This document shows, piece after piece, positions 3,498 to 38,804 of a DNA stretch of 39,163 nt. The DNA is from Kayfunavirus PDP351P4, in sequence record OZ035749.1; one strand, 5' to 3'. The position numbers and the translations under genes were made by a program. How positions within the stretch are numbered: the first letter of the stretch is position 1; each line of letters begins with the position of its first letter. Under the pieces are notes generated by a model. That model saw nothing but the letters and a program-made list of their open reading frames with translations. It made no database searches and was not told the DNA's origin.

Positions 3498-3610
3498 ACC
3501 ATAGGTCACAACCATAGGTCACAACCATAAGTCATAACCTACATCTCACAACCATAAGTCATAACCTACAGCCTCAACCATAAGACACCTACAGTCTAAA
3601 CCTACAGTTA
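3498..3610. repeat. tandem array of about 8 degenerate 13-14 bp units (ACCATAGGTCACA / ACCATAAGTCATA / ACCTACAGCCTCA ...) in the genome-end/left-end region
   Basis: read directly; first two units are identical; related ACCTACRG units also at about 3231-3270. Confidence 0.7.
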
Positions 3611-9143: not shown

Positions 9144-9162
9144 ACTATCACTATAGGATTAG
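9139..9162 (+). promoter_or_regulatory. phage RNAP promoter (phi1.1 position)
   Basis: CTAAACTATCACTATAGGATT. Confidence 0.7.
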
Positions 9163-9166
9163 ACTC

Positions 9167-9193
9167 AAGGTCATGACTCAAAGTCGTGGCCTT
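9167..9193 (+). promoter_or_regulatory. RNase III processing-site-like hairpin (R1.1 position)
   Basis: AAGGTCA ... TGGCCTT stem with 13-nt loop, immediately downstream of the promoter. Confidence 0.5.
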
Positions 9194-9231
9194 CATGATC
9201 AACCCTAACTCATTCAATCAGGAGCTACACC

Positions 9232-16018: not shown

Positions 16019-16183
16019 GTGTTAAAGAAACTTAAAGCTCGATACCATCGGTTCATGTACAAATGGTGGAGCGATGAAGCAACCTGCCTGTCCAACATTC
16101 TGGGAGACCAAAGGTTCGACTCTGAGGCATGGAAGAAAGCTAACCGGAAGTTTATGTATCACTTCTTGCGTACAGACTTCTAG
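16019..16183 (+). CDS. small hypothetical protein (gene 4.3/4.5 position), GTG start
   Basis: 54-aa ORF from GTG with GGAGGA RBS 7 nt upstream; between gene 4 and gene 5. Confidence 0.35.
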   Translation: MLKKLKARYHRFMYKWWSDEATCLSNILGDQRFDSEAWKKANRKFMYHFLRTDF

Positions 16184-23925: not shown

Positions 23926-23949
23926 ACTAAACTATCACTATAGGGAGAC
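23926..23949 (+). promoter_or_regulatory. phage RNAP promoter (phi10 position, strongest consensus with GGGAGA start)
   Basis: ACTAAACTATCACTATAGGGAGAC immediately upstream of the major capsid gene. Confidence 0.8.
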
Positions 23950-24052: not shown

Positions 24053-25096
24053 ATGGCAAACGTTCCGGGTCAGAAAATTGGTACAGACCAAGGTAAAGGC
24101 AAAGCTGGTTCCGACGCTCTGGCGTTGTTCCTGAAGGTATTTGCTGGTGAAGTCCTGACCGCATTCACTCGCCGCTCTGTAACTGCCGACAAGCATATTG
24201 TCCGTACCATTCAGAACGGTAAGTCTGCTCAGTTCCCGGTCATGGGTCGCACCTCTGGTGTGTATCTGGCTCCGGGTGAGCGACTGTCCGATAAGCGTAA
24301 AGGTATCAAACATACCGAGAAAGTGATTACCATTGACGGTCTGCTGACTGCCGATGTGATGATTTTCGACATTGAAGACGCGATGAACCACTATGACGTG
24401 GCTGGCGAGTATTCCAACCAGTTAGGTGAAGCGCTGGCTATCGCTGCTGATGGTGCGGTTCTGGCTGAAATGGCTATCTTGTGTAACCTCCCTGCCGCTT
24501 CCAACGAGAACATCGCTGGTCTGGGCACTGCGTCAGTACTGGAAGTTGGTAAGAAAGATGACCTCGATACCCCGGCTAAACTGGGTGAAGCAATCATTGG
24601 TCAATTGACCATTGCTCGTGCTAAGCTGACCTCCAACTACGTTCCTGCTGGCGACCGTTACTTCTACACCACGCCTGACAACTACTCTGCAATCCTCGCG
24701 GCTCTGATGCCGAACGCTGCTAACTATGCTGCACTGATTGATCCAGAGACTGGTAACATCCGTAACGTGATGGGCTTCGTTGTTGTTGAAGTTCCGCATC
24801 TGGTACAGGGTGGTGCTGGTGAGACTCGTGGTGACGATGGTATCACTATCGCTTCCGGTCAGAAACACGCATTCCCGGCGACTGTTACTGGCGACGTTAA
24901 AGTTGCTATGGACAACGTTGTGGGCCTCTTCTCTCACCGTTCTGCTGTGGGTACTGTGAAGCTGCGTGATTTGGCGCTGGAACGTGACCGTGACGTCGAT
25001 GCTCAGGGCGACCTGATTGTTGGTAAGTACGCTATGGGTCACGGTGGTCTGCGTCCTGAAGCGGCTGGCGCACTGGTTTTCAGTCCAGCGGCGTAA
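24053..25096 (+). CDS. major capsid protein 10A (T7 gp10A-like)
   Basis: 347 aa (T7 10A is 345); SAQFPV.GRT...YLAPGE...DKRK.IKHTEKVITIDGLLTADV.I.DIEDAMNHYDV...YS.QLGE.LA.AADGAVLAE align with T7 10A. Confidence 0.96.
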   Translation: MANVPGQKIGTDQGKGKAGSDALALFLKVFAGEVLTAFTRRSVTADKHIVRTIQNGKSAQFPVMGRTSGVYLAPGERLSDKRKGIKHTEKVITIDGLLTADVMIFDIEDAMNHYDVAGEYSNQLGEALAIAADGAVLAEMAILCNLPAASNENIAGLGTASVLEVGKKDDLDTPAKLGEAIIGQLTIARAKLTSNYVPAGDRYFYTTPDNYSAILAALMPNAANYAALIDPETGNIRNVMGFVVVEVPHLVQGGAGETRGDDGITIASGQKHAFPATVTGDVKVAMDNVVGLFSHRSAVGTVKLRDLALERDRDVDAQGDLIVGKYAMGHGGLRPEAAGALVFSPAA

Positions 25097-25227
25097 GCAC
25101 CTTTAGCCAACCTAACGTCGCTACAGTAGCGGCTGCACCTGAAGAGGAGACTCTGAGTCCTCAACAGAAAGCTGCGCGTACTCGTGCTGCGAACAGGGCC
25201 GCTAAACTGGCTGAGTCCAACAACTAA
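24053..25227 (+). CDS. minor capsid protein 10B, predicted -1 programmed frameshift extension of 10A
   Basis: slippery GGTTTTC at 25075-25081, 15 nt before the 10A stop; the -1 frame stays open for about 50 more codons to TAA at 25225-25227, the same size of extension as T7 10B. Confidence 0.5.
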
Positions 25228-25231
25228 TTGA

Positions 25232-25270
25232 AACCCCTTGGGTGCCTTCGGGTGCTTGAGGGGTTTTTTG
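25232..25270 (+). terminator. T-phi-like terminator for the phage RNAP
   Basis: AACCCCTTGGGTGCCTTCGGGTGCTTGAGGGGTTTTTTG: GC-rich G-U-containing hairpin plus T6 tract, closely resembling T7 T-phi and located just after gene 10. Confidence 0.8.
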
Positions 25271-25388
25271 CTTAAGTAGGAGGAACTATGTTCCTTATTT
25301 ACACATGGTTAGTACTATTCGTCTTATTCTGGGCGTACCTGCTGCCCAGCTCACCGTCTAGCCCCTATGACCGTTAAGGAGTAAACCT

Positions 25389-25955
25389 ATGTCTCAATAC
25401 ATTCCACTGAATGCTAACGATGACTTAGATGCCATCAACGATATGTTAGCTGCTATCGGTGAACCAGCAGTCCTACAGCTTGACGAAGGCAATGCTGATG
25501 TCTCGAATGCTCAACGCATCCTGCATCGTGTCAATCGTCAGGTCCAAGCTAAAGGCTGGAACTTTAACATCAACGAAGCTGCTGTCCTGACACCTGATGT
25601 CCAAGACAACAGGATTCGATTCCTACCGTCATACCTTCGTGTAATGACTGCTGGGGCCACCAGCTATTATAGCAACATGGGTGGATACCTGTACGACCTG
25701 TCCACTCAGTCAACCACTTTCACCGACCCTATAACAGTAGAGCTTGTTGAGATGAAACCATTCTCTGAGATGCCAGTGGTCTTCAGGGACTACATCGTTA
25801 CCAAGGCTAGCCGTGAGTTCAACGCTAAGTTCTTCGGTAGCCCAGAGTCTGAACTGTACCTTCGTGAGCAGGAAGCAGAACTCTATCAGCAGGTCATGGA
25901 ATATGAGATGGACACTGGTCGCTACAACATGATGTCCGACATCGGGAGGGACTAA
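25389..25955 (+). CDS. tail tubular protein A / gatekeeper (T7 gp11-like)
   Basis: 188 aa (T7 gp11 is 196); first gene after T-phi. Confidence 0.8.
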   Translation: MSQYIPLNANDDLDAINDMLAAIGEPAVLQLDEGNADVSNAQRILHRVNRQVQAKGWNFNINEAAVLTPDVQDNRIRFLPSYLRVMTAGATSYYSNMGGYLYDLSTQSTTFTDPITVELVEMKPFSEMPVVFRDYIVTKASREFNAKFFGSPESELYLREQEAELYQQVMEYEMDTGRYNMMSDIGRD

Positions 25956-26182
25956 TGGCAGCGCATAATCTGAAGATTCACCGCCAGCACTTTGGTCCGG
26001 TACAACTAGGTCTAAAGACAGCAGAGCTGAGACTTAACGACCGGGACTTTAAGGTTGGCGACTGGCTTATTCTGAATGAGTGGGACAACGGGTATACTGG
26101 ACAACAGGTAGCACGTAAGGTTGTCCACATTGCTGACGTTGGTGACATCGCTGAGGGATACGTCCTAATGAGTATGATTTAA
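25955..26182 (+). CDS. DUF3850/ASCH-like (PUA-fold) small protein inserted between genes 11 and 12
   Basis: 75 aa; H.FGPV..G.KTAELRLNDRDFKVGDWLILNEWD.G.YTG fits the DUF3850 pattern as I remember it; ATGG overlap with the gene 11 stop. Confidence 0.55.
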   Translation: MAAHNLKIHRQHFGPVQLGLKTAELRLNDRDFKVGDWLILNEWDNGYTGQQVARKVVHIADVGDIAEGYVLMSMI

Positions 26183-26191
26183 GGAGGGCCT

Positions 26192-28549
26192 ATGCCACTT
26201 ATCACACAAAGCATAAAAAATCTTAAAGGTGGAATTAGCCAGCAGCCTGACATCCTGAGGTTCTCAGACCAAGGCGAGGAGCAAGTTAACTGCTGGTCAT
26301 CAGAGAGTGATGGCCTCCAGAAGCGTCCACCTACAGTCTTCAAGCGACGTCTTAACATCGACGTTGGTAGTAACCCTAAGTTCCACCTGATTAACCGTGA
26401 TGAGCAGGAGCAGTATTACATCGTGTTCAACGGGTCCAACATTCAGGTAGTTGACTTGAGTGGTAATCAATACTCCGTTTCCGGTGCGGTAGATTACGTT
26501 AATTCGTCCAACCCGCGAGATGACATCCGTGTAGTTACCGTTGCAGACTATACGTTCATCGTGAACCGTAAGGTTGTCGTTAAAGGTGGAAGCGATAAGT
26601 CACACTCTGGTTATAATCGTAAAGCTCGCGCTTTAATCAACCTGCGTGGTGGACAGTATGGTCGCACCCTTAAGGTAGGAATCAACGGAGGCGTTAAGGT
26701 TTCGCATAAGTTGCCAGCAGGTAATGATGCCGAGAATGACCCACCTAAGGTGGATGCGCAGGCCATCGGTGCAGCTCTGAGAGACCTTCTTGTTGCTGCT
26801 TACCCTACCTTCACGTTCGACCTTGGGTCTGGCTTCCTGTTGATCACTGCCCCTTCAGGGACTGACATTAACTCAGTGGAGACGGAGGATGGCTACGCTA
26901 ACCAGCTAATCAGCCCAGTACTCGACACGGTGCAAACAATCTCTAAGTTGCCTCTTGCAGCTCCAAATGGGTATATCATTAAGATTCAAGGTGAGACAAA
27001 CAGTAGCGCCGATGAATACTACGTGATGTATGACTCCAACACTAAGACGTGGAAGGAGACAGTGGAGCCGGGAGCCGTTACTGGGTTCGATGTCGCCACA
27101 ATGCCACATGCTCTGGTCAGAAAGTCTGATGGCTCATTTGAGTTCAAGACTCTGGATTGGTCCAAGCGTGGTGCTGGTAACGATGACACAAACCCTATGC
27201 CTAGCTTCGTGGATGCTACGATTAATGATGTGTTCTTCTACAGGAACAGACTTGGGTTCTTGTCAGGCGAGAACGTAATCATGAGCCGTTCAGCAAGCTA
27301 CTTTGCGTTCTTCCCTAAGAGTGTGGCGACACTGAGTGATGATGATCCTATTGACGTAGCTGTAAGTCACCCTAGAATCTCAATCCTTAAGTATGCCGTT
27401 CCGTTTAGTGAGCAGCTACTACTTTGGTCGGATGAGGTTCAGTTCGTGATGACAAGCTCTGGGGTACTTACATCGAAGTCTATCCAGCTTGATGTAGGCT
27501 CAGAGTTTGCCTTAGGCGATAATGCCAGACCGTTCGCTGTAGGACGCTCAGTCTTCTTCTCAGCGCCTCGTGGGTCATTCACCAGCATTAAGCGATACTT
27601 CGCTGTAGCAGATGTGTCTGATGTGAAGGATGCTGATGATACCACTGGCCACGTACTGTCCTATATCCCTAACGGGGTGTTTGACATTCAAGGTACAGGT
27701 ACTGAGAACTATATCTGCGTCAACTCTACAGGTGCATACAACCGAATCTACATCTACAAGTTCTTGTTTAAGGATGGCGTACAGCTTCAAGCCTCTTGGT
27801 CGCACTGGGAGTTCCCTAAAGCTGATAAGATTCTGGCATCTGCGTCTATTGGCTCTACCATGTTCATTGTTCGTCAGCACCAAGGCGGCGTGGACCTTGA
27901 GCACCTTAAGTTCATCAAGGAGGCAACTGACTTTCCGTTAGAGCCATATAGACTCCACGTTGACTCCAAGGTGTCTATGGTAATACCAATTGGCTCATAC
28001 AACGCTGACACCTATAAGACTACGGTTGACATTGGTTCTGCTTATGGTGGAAACGCTCCGTCTCCCGGTCGGTACTATCTTATTGACAGTCAGGGTGCTT
28101 ATGTAGACCTTGGTGACCTGACTAGCACATCCACTGTGGTTACCATTAATGGCGATTGGTCAGGACGTACAGTGTTCATCGGACGGTCTTATCTGATGTC
28201 CTACAAGTTCTCACGGTTCCTGATTAAGATTGAAGACGAGAGTGGTACTCAGTCTGAAGACACTGGACGCCTACAACTTCGTCGGGCTTGGGTCAACTAC
28301 AAGGACACTGGCGCTCTTAGACTCATTGTCAGAAACGGTGAGCGGGAGTTCGTGAACACCTTTAATGGGTACACCCTTGGTCAGCAAACCATCGGGACTA
28401 CCAACATTGGGGATGGTCAGTATCGCTTCGCTATGAATGGTAACGCATTAACCACGAGTCTAACCTTAGAGTCAGATTATCCTACCCCAGTGTCCATCGT
28501 TGGCTGTGGCTGGGAGGCGTCATACGCTAAGAAAGCTCGTTCCGTCTAA
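26192..28549 (+). CDS. tail tubular protein B / nozzle (T7 gp12-like)
   Basis: 785 aa (T7 gp12 is 794); gene 12 position. Confidence 0.88.
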   Translation: MPLITQSIKNLKGGISQQPDILRFSDQGEEQVNCWSSESDGLQKRPPTVFKRRLNIDVGSNPKFHLINRDEQEQYYIVFNGSNIQVVDLSGNQYSVSGAVDYVNSSNPRDDIRVVTVADYTFIVNRKVVVKGGSDKSHSGYNRKARALINLRGGQYGRTLKVGINGGVKVSHKLPAGNDAENDPPKVDAQAIGAALRDLLVAAYPTFTFDLGSGFLLITAPSGTDINSVETEDGYANQLISPVLDTVQTISKLPLAAPNGYIIKIQGETNSSADEYYVMYDSNTKTWKETVEPGAVTGFDVATMPHALVRKSDGSFEFKTLDWSKRGAGNDDTNPMPSFVDATINDVFFYRNRLGFLSGENVIMSRSASYFAFFPKSVATLSDDDPIDVAVSHPRISILKYAVPFSEQLLLWSDEVQFVMTSSGVLTSKSIQLDVGSEFALGDNARPFAVGRSVFFSAPRGSFTSIKRYFAVADVSDVKDADDTTGHVLSYIPNGVFDIQGTGTENYICVNSTGAYNRIYIYKFLFKDGVQLQASWSHWEFPKADKILASASIGSTMFIVRQHQGGVDLEHLKFIKEATDFPLEPYRLHVDSKVSMVIPIGSYNADTYKTTVDIGSAYGGNAPSPGRYYLIDSQGAYVDLGDLTSTSTVVTINGDWSGRTVFIGRSYLMSYKFSRFLIKIEDESGTQSEDTGRLQLRRAWVNYKDTGALRLIVRNGEREFVNTFNGYTLGQQTIGTTNIGDGQYRFAMNGNALTTSLTLESDYPTPVSIVGCGWEASYAKKARSV

Positions 28550-28573
28550 CTTATTGAAGGGCCTATAGATTTA

Positions 28574-28597
28574 CCTTAACTATCACTATAGGGACTA
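28574..28597 (+). promoter_or_regulatory. phage RNAP promoter (phi13 position)
   Basis: CCTTAACTATCACTATAGGGACTA. Confidence 0.7.
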
Positions 28598-28625
28598 TAG
28601 GCCCTTAAGGTTATAAGGAGACTTT

Positions 28626-29081
28626 ATGTATATTCGCAAGGCTACAGATGTAGACGTTTGGTACGCTGCTGCACAACTTACAGATGACGACTTAGAGGAG
28701 TGTAAAGCCAACTATGGGACCACTGAAGGTCTCACCGAAAGGCTGCAAGCACACCTAACGTCGACATCTGTGGTTTTGACTAACGCTCTTGGAGAGATTT
28801 ACGCCTATGGTGGCAACCAAGGTGACAACGTTTGGTTCCTGACGACCAGAATGACCGAGCGTCTCACACCTGAAGGTAAGCGAGAGTTCCGTGAGAGAAT
28901 CATGGAGTATCGTGACAAGATGCTGGAGGATTATCAGGTACTATGGAACTACGTCTGGGAAGGCAATACGTCCCACATCCGGTTTCTCAAGTCAATAGGC
29001 GCTAAGTTCCACGACGATAAGTGGACCAGAAGTCCAGTTACTGGAGAAGTATTCATTCTATTTACAATCACCAAGGAGTAA
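28626..29081 (+). CDS. internal virion protein (T7 gp13-like)
   Basis: 151 aa (T7 gp13 is 138); positional assignment. Confidence 0.6.
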   Translation: MYIRKATDVDVWYAAAQLTDDDLEECKANYGTTEGLTERLQAHLTSTSVVLTNALGEIYAYGGNQGDNVWFLTTRMTERLTPEGKREFRERIMEYRDKMLEDYQVLWNYVWEGNTSHIRFLKSIGAKFHDDKWTRSPVTGEVFILFTITKE

Positions 29082-29083
29082 AG

Positions 29084-29485
29084 ATGACCAAGGTTTGTTT
29101 AACTTGTGGTCTGGAGAAACCAATCACTGAGTTTCACAAACAGGCCACCAAGAAAGACCAAAACAGGAGAAAGCCTCATTGCAGAAGCTGCTGGTCCAAG
29201 ATACGGAAGGATAGAACCCCAGAGCACAACAGGCGGTATAACCTGAAGAAAGGCTACGGAATAACACCTGAGGAGTATGATAAGATGCTTCGTGAGCAAG
29301 GTGGGACATGTGCCATCTGCCATGGTACAGAGTCGGTAGGAAGACTAGCGGTAGACCATTGCCATTCCACTGGAAAGGTTAGAGGGCTGCTATGTACCAA
29401 CTGCAATCAAGCTATAGGCAAGCTGAAGGATGACGCTCAGTTGCTTAGGAACGCTATCAACTATCTGGAGGTGAGCCGTGTGTGA
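29084..29485 (+). CDS. endonuclease VII-family (HNH-like) nuclease, putative homing endonuclease
   Basis: 133 aa from the ATG preceded by AAGGAG; CAICHG...L.VDHCH.TGKVRGLLCTNCN..IGKL matches the zinc/HNH core of T4 endonuclease VII (C.IC...L..DH.H....GKVRGLLC..CN); Arg codons mostly AGA/AGG and Ile ATA, unlike neighbouring genes. Confidence 0.8.
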   Translation: MTKVCLTCGLEKPITEFHKQATKKDQNRRKPHCRSCWSKIRKDRTPEHNRRYNLKKGYGITPEEYDKMLREQGGTCAICHGTESVGRLAVDHCHSTGKVRGLLCTNCNQAIGKLKDDAQLLRNAINYLEVSRV

Positions 29486-36314: not shown

Positions 36315-38804
36315 ATGTCCACGATTACACAATTCCCTTCAGGAAACACTCAGTACAGGATTGAGTTCGACTACCTAGCCAGAACGTTTGTTGTTGTTAC
36401 GCTGGTGAATAGCTCTAACCTTACCCTGAACCGTGTACTGGAAGTTGGTCGAGATTACCGATTCCTTAATCCAACGATGATTGAGATGCTGGTTGACCAA
36501 TCAGGTTTCGACACCGTTCGTATTCACCGTCAGACTGGAACTGACTTAGTGGTAGACTTCAGGAATGGCTCAGTGTTGACAGCTAGTGACCTGACCAATG
36601 CAGAGCTTCAGGCTATCCATATTGCAGAAGAAGGTCGAGACCAAACGGTTGACTTAGCGAAGGAATATGCTGATGCTGCTGGTATCTCTGCTGGCAACGC
36701 TAAGGATAGCGAGGACGAAGTACGACGAATCGCTGCGAATATCAAGGCATCTGGTCAAATTGGCTATATTGCCCGTCGCTCCTTCGAGAAAGGCTTCAAC
36801 GTTACAACATGGAACGAGGCCCTGCTATGGGAAGAGGATGGTGAGTATTACCGCTGGGATGGCACGCTTCCAAAGAACGTTCCTGCTGGTTCAACTCCTG
36901 AATCATCTGGTGGTATTGGGCTGGGTGCGTGGGTTAGTGTTGGTGATGCGACACTTAGAGGGGAAATCTCTTCTAAATATGGATTATCAATTATTGGTGG
37001 GTTTGAATCAATAGATGATATTAGATCATATTCATCAACAGCCAGCTTGCCAAACGGTGCAAGAGCATTCTTGTTTAGTTTTCATGCTGGTAAAAACACT
37101 GGTGGTGGTGTGTTTCAGTGGTACAGCAACGCGACAACATCCGATGACGGTTTCTCTGTTATTAAGCCATCATCTGTTTCTGGGGCGGGCCGGTGGATTA
37201 ACGTTAAGCGTGGCAGGCTAACTCCGGAAGAATGTGGTTGCGTACCTAATGACCCATCATTTGATAACGGTGTACCACTTAATAGATGGGCATCACAACA
37301 GCACTGTATTGGTTCCGTTGGCGTCTTTTATAAAACAACTGCTTTAATACCCTCACCGCCAGCGTATCCGCAGTATATAGACGCTAAGGGTATGCGGCTG
37401 ATGACTACCGTACCTGACGTAAACGGGCTGGAACTCCCCCCTGCTACGTCCAGACGTATCACTATTGAGGGCCTTGAGTCGTTCGGTGACCCATCATTAA
37501 CAGTAACAAATCGTAATAAAGCCAACGGCTTCTATATCGCAGGTAGCCGTGAAGTTACGTTAAAGAATATTCGCTGTGAGGGGTGGAAAAACTCTGGTGT
37601 CTGGTGGTTTGAAGTCAACAATATGACCATAGACGGTTTTATTGGGTGGAGGAATGATTGGGATGGTTCAACGCTATTCTCCTCTGGCGGTGATTTAGTT
37701 GAATGGACTTCGAGCGCCGGGTTGGCGAAATCATGCAGTATAAATAATTTTGCGTGTTTTTCAGACGGCAGCCAGAGCATTTCAGTAAACTCACTTTCTT
37801 TTGGGAGAAACATATTAATTAGCAATGGACGTTGCTTCACGTATGACGCCACAGATTTTACGCCAAAGACTCGTTCAGATATCAAAGCTCGTCACGGAAT
37901 TACGATAGGTTACAGCTCCAATCAGACATATGGTGGGGGAGTCAAAGTCAGCAATGTCATTATCAGAGATAAGGGATGGACTGGTATTTATCGGTCCGGC
38001 GGCCTAGATGGAGCTGTTCGATACCAACCAGCAACAGTCTCTAACGTTTCCGTGTACGATTGCGGTTTTGGTATAAATCAAGACAACATCGGTGCTGGTA
38101 TTCTGTTCGGTGACGTAGTGGACGGAGACATGATCAACAACTGTTATGTGGAAGGATTCGCTAACGCTAATAACGGTGCGTATAAAATTCAGGATTCTGT
38201 AGGTACAGGTAAGCTGACAATAGCTAACTGTGTTGATAAAAGCTCTGCTGGCTACGGGGTGCATATAGCAACAGAGTCGGTTAACGTAATGGTTATTGGG
38301 CACAGAAGCATAGAACCAACCGGAGCAGGTATTTTTCTTGAGGCAAAAGGCGGCGCAACACTATTCCGGTCGCATACTATTGACGGATGCCGTATTGAGC
38401 GTGTGACGGACGGTTACGGAATATTGTTGTCTAACGGCGTACTTAGCGCAAATATTAAAAACAACGAAATCCGTGGTACTTCTACGAACTCCACAACAAA
38501 CTGTGCTATTCGGGTAAACCAAAACGGGCAAAACATAAATATCAGAGGAAATCAGATTTACGGTTTTGCATACGGGTTGTGGTACAATACCTATGTGGAT
38601 ACCACAACAATATTCCCGTGGGGTAACAACCAATTCTTCGGCTGCATTAACGCACACCGTTTCGCAAGGACGACCGGCACCAGCGTAGCCAAGGTAGAAC
38701 CAAACTACTACGATGGAGGAACTACAAACATGTTCTCCAACGGTGGCGTGGGAACGAGTAACGGAACGGAAGAATTTAGAGTTAATGGTGCTCCTGTGAC
38801 CTAA
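36315..38804 (+). CDS. tail fiber / tailspike: T7 gp17-like N-terminal adaptor fused to a large beta-helix (depolymerase-like) C-terminal domain
   Basis: 829 aa (T7 gp17 is 553); the N-terminal roughly 150 aa align with T7 gp17 (F.YLAR.FVVVTL, LV.DF.NGS.L.A.DL, EEGRD); the remainder is unrelated, rich in N/G/S/T with repeated rung-like segments ([38 protein letters not shown]) and a visibly more AT-rich nucleotide composition. Confidence 0.88.

Follow-up and report, generated by a model that had tools for sequence, protein, structure and literature searches.

Between genes 11 and 12 of a T7-like phage lies a small reading frame (positions 25955-26182) that is, judged from its sequence, a genuine gene and not a chance frame, because its protein is scored as DUF3850 by Pfam and because it holds a fixed position at this junction in all 26 other carrier loci examined. 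Our preferred explanation, which we regard as reasonably probable, is that of a translated late accessory gene whose product would be a non-structural, PUA-like binder of a base or nucleotide and would act as a host-dependent fitness factor.

Taken alone, the ORF is an ordinary, already annotated gene, and its value is a practical one, as a good knock-out target. What is new here is modest, namely a map of the 11-12 junction in four states, a Shine-Dalgarno signature written in synonymous codons, and natural isogenic pairs. Together, these make the function of DUF3850 directly testable.

A conserved gene between two tail genes

The window, by which we mean the whole stretch of 39,163 nucleotides that was analysed, is by sequence identity a Kayfunavirus, a K1F-like relative of T7; over a 1.1-kb region it shares 93-96% identity with many genomes of Kayfunavirus (K1F-like Studiervirinae). 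The features that matter for the ORF are collected in Table 1. We refer to its place as 'gene 11.5', a position label coined in this analysis.

Table 1. Features around the junction of genes 11 and 12 and the neighbouring late region, in window coordinates.
Feature	Position	Strand	Remarks
phi10-type phage-RNAP promoter, ACTAAACTATCACTATAGGGAGA	23926..23948	+	nearest upstream; repeat families D1, D2, D4
Tphi-like intrinsic terminator, genes 10/11	25230..25273	+	17-bp stem and U run; hairpin 25230-25267
gene 11 (tail tubular protein A / adaptor)	25389..25955	+	Pfam Tube E=3.6e-46
Shine-Dalgarno GGGAGG of the ORF	25944..25949	+	5 nt before the ATG/overlapping TAATG
DUF3850 ORF	25955..26182	+	75 aa, ATG start; stand-alone minimal ASCH/PUA-like domain
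Shine-Dalgarno AAGGAGG of gene 12	26181..26187	+	separate; overlaps the ORF stop; kept in relatives
gene 12 (tail tubular protein B / nozzle)	26192..28549	+	Pfam Phage_nozzle E=0; downstream neighbour of the ORF
gene 13	28626-29081	+	gp13 94% identical to EcoDS1 gp13
endonuclease VII ORF	29084-29485	+	133 aa; Pfam Endonuclease_7 E=4e-28; between genes 13 and 14

Gene 11 ends in ...GGG AGG GAC TAA, with the stop codon at 25953-25955, and the final A of this stop is at the same time the A of the ORF's ATG, which gives a one-base TAATG overlap. Near its end, gene 11 encodes Gly-Arg as GGG AGG, and these two codons form the Shine-Dalgarno sequence of the ORF. Downstream, the ORF stop codon (26180-26182) is separated from the ATG of gene 12 by 9 nt. 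An initial annotation of this DNA had proposed that the gene is coupled to gene 11 through an 'ATGG' overlap and that T7 has no gene at this position. The coupling stands, in the form of TAATG plus Shine-Dalgarno, with the overlap corrected to the one-base TAATG, and the T7 junction is indeed a 23-nt spacer with no gene in between.

The gene is far from rare. A tblastn search with the ORF protein matched 486 phage records, 154 of them at 80% identity or more, and all inspected records among these 154 were T7-like genomes of roughly 40 kb in which annotated tail genes flank the gene. In about 150 GenBank phages the gene occupies the identical 11-12 junction and is named hypothetical, DUF3850 or RNA-binding protein. 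Beside the window, the same junction carries it in 26 distinct T7-like phages or contigs drawn from IMG/VR, ENA, Logan and GenBank, down to 68% protein identity. Most members of the genus Kayfunavirus, by a large margin, carry the DUF3850 gene, which is already annotated in well over 100 GenBank genomes.

A complete minimal DUF3850 domain

The family assignment in the initial annotation was borne out by profile searches. Pfam PF12961 (DUF3850) matches with E=1.5e-19 and 70.4 bits, above a gathering threshold of 22.9, and residues 3-73 of the ORF protein align to model positions 1-76 of 77, that is, to the whole model. The related PF04266 (ASCH) matches with E=1.4e-5 over model positions 2-61 of 103, i.e. 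its first 60% only, and PHROG 986 ('RNA-binding protein') with E=5e-35. The Pfam scan of the protein returned DUF3850 and ASCH and no other domain; NCBIfam returned nothing, and PADLOC gave a sub-threshold match only (PDC-M07B, E=0.0074, 14 bits over 34 residues). The ASCH superfamily (PF04266) reportedly goes back to Iyer et al. in 2006. DUF3850 itself is a big family: clustering at 50% identity gives 5,333 clusters (E<=1e-3), mostly from phages and prophages.

The sole solved sequence relative is 3IUW (E=1e-10 with a single sequence, 2.7e-19 with a profile), and the predicted fold of the ORF protein matches it, in agreement with the PUA-like fold expected at the outset: an ASCH-type, PUA-like beta-barrel. 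As a DUF3850 domain the ORF product is complete and minimal, a short barrel of this kind. The ASCH motif GxKxxExR (described in PMC5615036 and PMC9599836) is present as G19-L-K21-T-A-E24-L-R26 and is followed by N28-D29-R30. An alignment of the query with DUF3850 family representatives at the 50% clustering level, 153 sequences in all, shows at least 90% conservation for H4, L6, K7, G19, K21, E24, R26, N28, D29, R30, G35, D36, L40, E42 and G49; T48 lies slightly below 90%. All of these roughly 16 family-conserved positions are kept in the window protein, and the same positions are invariant in the T7-like set. Residues 21-30 are the most conserved stretch, yet also the lowest-confidence part of the predicted model (pLDDT 57).

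What would such conserved residues do? In our preferred explanation, the PUA-like barrel would take up a base or nucleotide in its conserved polar pocket, probably a base that is flipped or modified in a single- or double-stranded nucleic acid. Nucleic acids and modified bases are known ligands of ASCH and PUA-like domains (PMC4738411, PMC7641849, PMC5615036). A point against this explanation is that eleven near-invariant polar residues in a protein of 75 suit an enzyme equally well as a binder. The protein could then be no reader but a small hydrolase with a modified base, nucleoside or nucleotide as its substrate, and there are precedents: YqfB and EOLA1 deacetylate N4-acetylcytidine using a Lys21-Thr24-Glu74 triad (PMC9599836), the 5hmC glycosylase BapA, which is ASCH-like, has a role in defence (bioRxiv 10.64898/2026.02.25.707755), and ZmASCH from Zymomonas is a weak ssRNA nuclease (PMC5615036). 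In a profile alignment with YqfB, K21 and R26 fall on the catalytic Lys21 and Arg26 of YqfB, but the nucleophile Thr24 is replaced by Glu24, the canonical ASCH residue, and the 75-aa protein stops short of the region that bears the YqfB acid Glu74. On this alignment, a YqfB/EOLA1-type amidohydrolase was rejected, the triad being incomplete, with Glu24 for Thr24 and no counterpart of Glu74. An enzyme of some kind is nevertheless the likeliest of the rivals to a binder, although we hold it to be unlikely; a near-neutral passenger and a tail role follow in this order.

Reading and translating the ORF

Phage-RNAP promoter copies (CTAAACTATCACTATAGG...) are found at 23926, before gene 10, and next at 28574 (phi13), before gene 13, with none between the two. 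No sigma-70-like site or terminator adjoins the ORF, the only promoter-like site in 24900-28800 being at 27351, and an Rfam search over the whole window found nothing. The terminator scan and folding assign the Tphi-like hairpin a dG of -25.8 kcal/mol (z = -3.3). The ORF has no promoter or terminator of its own. It would be transcribed late, on one RNA with genes 11 and 12, through read-through at the Tphi-like terminator. Phage RNA polymerase starting at phi10 and at promoters further upstream would pass through this terminator and produce an 11-'11.5'-12 mRNA. In class III transcription of T7, genes 11 and 12 are likewise reached by terminator read-through.

These signals also bear on how the gene is to be called. 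The initial annotation had described it as moron-type, and this description had to be given up: as it lacks a promoter and a terminator of its own, the gene is accessory but not a strict moron, and is simply spliced into the 11-12 cistron pair. The same annotation had placed it in a highly expressed late operon. The operon is the late structural one; the position of the ORF downstream of a strong Tphi-like hairpin, however, qualifies the level of expression.

Translation of the ORF would proceed by termination-reinitiation coupling at TAATG, with a Shine-Dalgarno sequence provided by rare synonymous codons inside gene 11. In every locus examined, wherever a gene starts at TAATG, the preceding Gly-Arg of gene 11 is encoded GGG AGG or GGG AGA, rare codons that form the Shine-Dalgarno sequence, and the sequence is GGGAG[G/A]GACTAATG in 26/26 other loci that carry DUF3850. 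Where Kayfunaviruses have a T7-type spacer instead (Dev2, IMM-002, SH4, Ro45lw), these two residues are written GGT CGA. We take this association as a sign, at the sequence level, that the TAATG start is used. Mass spectrometry of virions of the carrier phage B1 covered selected excised gel bands only.

Four states of the 11-12 junction

Within the genus, the junction occurs in four states. In state A it is a T7-type spacer without the ORF (...GGT CGA GAC TAA T AGGAGG N5-6 ATG), as seen in about 18 phages, among them Dev2, IMM-002, SH3/4/5, SFPH2, SFP20/21, GW1, EP1 and Ro45lw, and further Ro103C3lw, RDN8.1, MopsHU1, IME278 and EcpYZU01. State B has the ORF and comprises about 150 records, including the window. 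State C lacks exactly the stretch from the ORF's ATG to the ATG of gene 12, which places the start of gene 12 at the TAATG (GGGAGGGACTAATGCCGCTT); this is the state of K1F and at least 12 others (ZG49, IME177, BUCT788, phiYIO1-1, vB_EcoP-R1, ST1749, ST0223, pO2, SR04, Zappy, PR_Kaz2018 and 216Ecol046PP). State D, in KM02 and Enterobacter phage B1, has the ORF and an extra endonuclease-like ORF before gene 12; the B1 genes are ORF40 and ORF41 (PMC12785254).

The second inserted ORF of state D (146-158 aa) lies between the DUF3850 gene and gene 12 and overlaps the gene 12 start. In KM02 (L094, 2095-2535) it is annotated 'endonuclease' and in B1, as ORF41, 'hypothetical protein'; an NCBIfam search with it gave no match.

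How states B and C are related can be read from their flanks. Those of K1F are 98.4% and 95.8% identical to those of the carrier FFK3, whose own flanks are less close to the window (94.5% and 91.9%). State C therefore falls within the diversity of state B, and we infer that it is secondary, the result of a deletion by microhomology in which the coupled start was retained.

The survey of the junction upholds the accessory status proposed for the gene, which is absent from K1F, ZG49, BUCT788, Dev2, SH4, Ro45lw and others. Since close, viable relatives with near-identical gp11 and gp12 do without it, the gene is dispensable for making infectious phage and neither essential nor an obligatory tail factor. 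A helper of tail assembly or a minor tail protein working with gp11 and gp12 is hardly to be expected; a tail-structural role was rejected on the natural deletions of K1F type and on the non-tail context of the family elsewhere.

The same survey supplies the experimental material. Kayfunaviruses are easily engineered and provide natural near-isogenic pairs with and without the bare DUF3850 domain, for example vB_EcoP_F or FFK3 versus K1F, both on K1 E. coli; K1F and vB_EcoP_F both encode the K1 endosialidase tailspike. A clean knock-out or knock-in in such pairs could assign a function to the whole DUF3850 family.

Selection, composition and mosaicism

For the ORF the mean pairwise NG86 dN/dS is 0.14, practically that of gene 12 (0.15), with gene 11 at 0.09. 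The 75-aa ORF first noticed between genes 11 and 12 is thus real and conserved, and its substitution pattern indicates purifying selection while it diverged to 68% identity at a fixed position. Its GC content is 0.489, and its GC, GC3 and codon adaptation match those of the neighbouring late genes (CAI like that of genes 12 and 13), which points to an old resident. A recent horizontal acquisition was rejected on this ameliorated composition and codon usage.

Mosaicism is seen among the relatives. In one relative (L083), gp11 is 99.5% identical to that of the window, the DUF3850 protein 68% and gp12 74%, a pattern that places a recombination breakpoint at the boundary of gene 11 and the ORF. 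Across mosaic relatives, the DUF3850 allele co-varies and travels with the gene 12 allele.

Could the gene then be a passenger in a hot spot of recombination and insertion, persisting by linkage and horizontal spread, as homing-endonuclease genes at this junction do, with little benefit to the phage? Its distribution within Kayfunavirus is patchy, the same slot holds the extra endonuclease ORFs in KM02 and Enterobacter phage B1, a homing endonuclease adjoins gene 12 in a Klebsiella phage (H146), and the mosaic breakpoint falls exactly at the gene 11/ORF boundary. Against this, the proteins differ by more than 30% and yet the dN/dS is low and no family-invariant residue has been lost, codon usage is ameliorated, a dedicated Shine-Dalgarno sequence is maintained through rare synonymous codons, and neither a homing-endonuclease domain (HNH, GIY-YIG, LAGLIDADG, EndoVII or the like) or other nuclease domain nor a mobility domain was found in the ORF (Pfam, NCBIfam, PADLOC). 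We therefore consider a passenger very unlikely.

Further features of the genome

ORF calling shows in the window an apparently complete, circularly permuted genome of some 39 kb, with genes 18, 18.5 and 19 (terminase; 1-2613) at its beginning and gene 17 (36315-38804) at its end. Gene 17 has 829 aa, against 1064 aa for the K1F endosialidase; being shorter, it points to a receptor-binding protein different from that of K1F. A cluster of short direct repeats at 3498-3570 (units such as TCACAACCATAAGTCATAACCTACA, 13 and 27 nt apart; families D5 and D9) lies in a non-coding stretch upstream of the early genes and may be part of a terminal-repeat or concatemer-junction region. A 64-nt direct repeat at 294-357 and 9147-9210 (75% identity; common GACTCAAGGTCAT...GTGGCCTT; families D6 and D11) overlaps a phage promoter at 9139 in its second copy and has no recognised promoter in its first; a third, partial copy lies at 16181.

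The endonuclease VII ORF starts with the ATG at 29084 behind AAGGAG, overlaps the start of gene 14 and is 97% identical to gene 13.5 of EcoDS1. The window gp13 is close to that of EcoDS1, but its identity to the gp13 proteins of K1F, Ro45lw and the majority of the other relatives is no more than 58-66%; the gp13 allele therefore travels with the endonuclease. Such a linkage is as expected for a homing endonuclease with co-conversion.

Possible functions

The initial annotation had considered a reader of RNA modifications or an anti-defence factor as possible roles. If the protein is a binder, what does its context say about the target? Outside the T7-like phages, about 60 viral loci with DUF3850 genes (144 neighbour proteins scanned) hold P2 GPA, NinB, NinG, RecU, Mu Gam, GemA and Mom, and further three kinds of DNA adenine/N4-N6 methylases (Dam/D12/N6_N4), DUF3987, DUF927, sigma-70 region 4 regulators and HNH proteins. 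DUF3850 neighbourhoods elsewhere are thus modules of replication, recombination and DNA modification, not tail modules. They argue for a non-structural role, and they make DNA at least as likely a target as RNA. The label 'RNA-binding' is an annotation inherited from PHROG 986/ASCH and has no better support than DNA binding.

GATC occurs 17 times in the window against about 147 expected and CCWGG once against about 106, and the depletion is equally extreme in nine other Kayfunavirus genomes, carriers and non-carriers alike. A link of the ORF to Dam/Dcm methylation was rejected, as the avoidance does not separate the two groups.

A comparison of 5 carrier and 5 non-carrier Kayfunavirus genomes found no second gene co-distributed with the ORF, the best candidates being an Ocr-like 0.3 (5/2) and gp3.2 (4/1). 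This suggests that the protein acts alone, and in our preferred explanation it would be a fitness factor in nucleic-acid handling or counter-defence and not a component of the tail. Its late timing speaks against this explanation in so far as it is unusual for a counter-defence gene. In the literature on DUF3850, on ASCH in phages, on RNA-binding proteins of Kayfunavirus and on T7-like accessory regions we found no DUF3850 experiment, and an accessory-gene screen (bioRxiv 10.1101/2023.04.06.535777) does not mention the gene; a literature match to 'gp11.5' was rejected as an unrelated gene of K1E.

Fusions of ParB-CTPase to DUF3850 are enriched in prophages, where they lie beside parA, and a role in anti-defence has been speculated (bioRxiv 10.1101/2025.10.10.680097).

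A bolder idea goes further. DUF3850 might be a widespread single-domain counter-defence module that, by means of its invariant pocket, sequesters, masks or chemically alters a nucleotide or modified base on which host immunity relies, and that moved into the Kayfunavirus tail operon to be co-produced with the late proteins that trigger the defence. Possible targets in such a scenario are an immune signalling nucleotide, a DNA or RNA modification installed by the defence, or the ligand of PUA-type modification sensors. We regard this as speculative and distinctly unlikely.

Comparison with known systems

Measured against Pfam DUF3850 and PDB 3IUW, the latter an 83-aa structural-genomics protein of the E. 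faecalis EF_0920 type named 'activating signal cointegrator', the ORF protein is a plain member with no difference of substance. Many longer members bear extra domains, such as DUF551 and DUF7415, themselves uncharacterised, or a ParB-CTPase, whereas the ORF protein is the bare domain (bioRxiv 10.1101/2025.10.10.680097). Its GenBank counterparts in Kayfunavirus (such as PE3-1 PE3_037, EcoDS1 AS9_0040, Vec13 gp42 and vB_EcoP_F gp44) are 95-99% identical in protein and share position, TAATG overlap and gene 12 spacer with it, without any difference.

Within the ASCH superfamily (YqfB, EOLA1, ZmASCH), the ORF protein is shorter and lacks the C-terminal helices; compared with YqfB it has Glu at the Thr24 nucleophile and carries the DUF3850-specific N-D-R extension. 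The modified-base readers EVE, YTH and SRA belong to the same PUA-like clan and have no sequence similarity to it, and the aromatic-cage residues of YTH and EVE were not identified in the ORF protein. In genome organisation there is a parallel with the free-standing homing-endonuclease genes of T7-like phages, such as the endonuclease VII gene 13.5 in the window and the endonuclease at the 11-12 junction of KM02: like them, the ORF is an optional small frame amid conserved late genes, with a patchy distribution and associated mosaic breakpoints. Unlike them, it has no nuclease domain, its substitution pattern indicates long-term purifying selection, and it is found in most of the genus.
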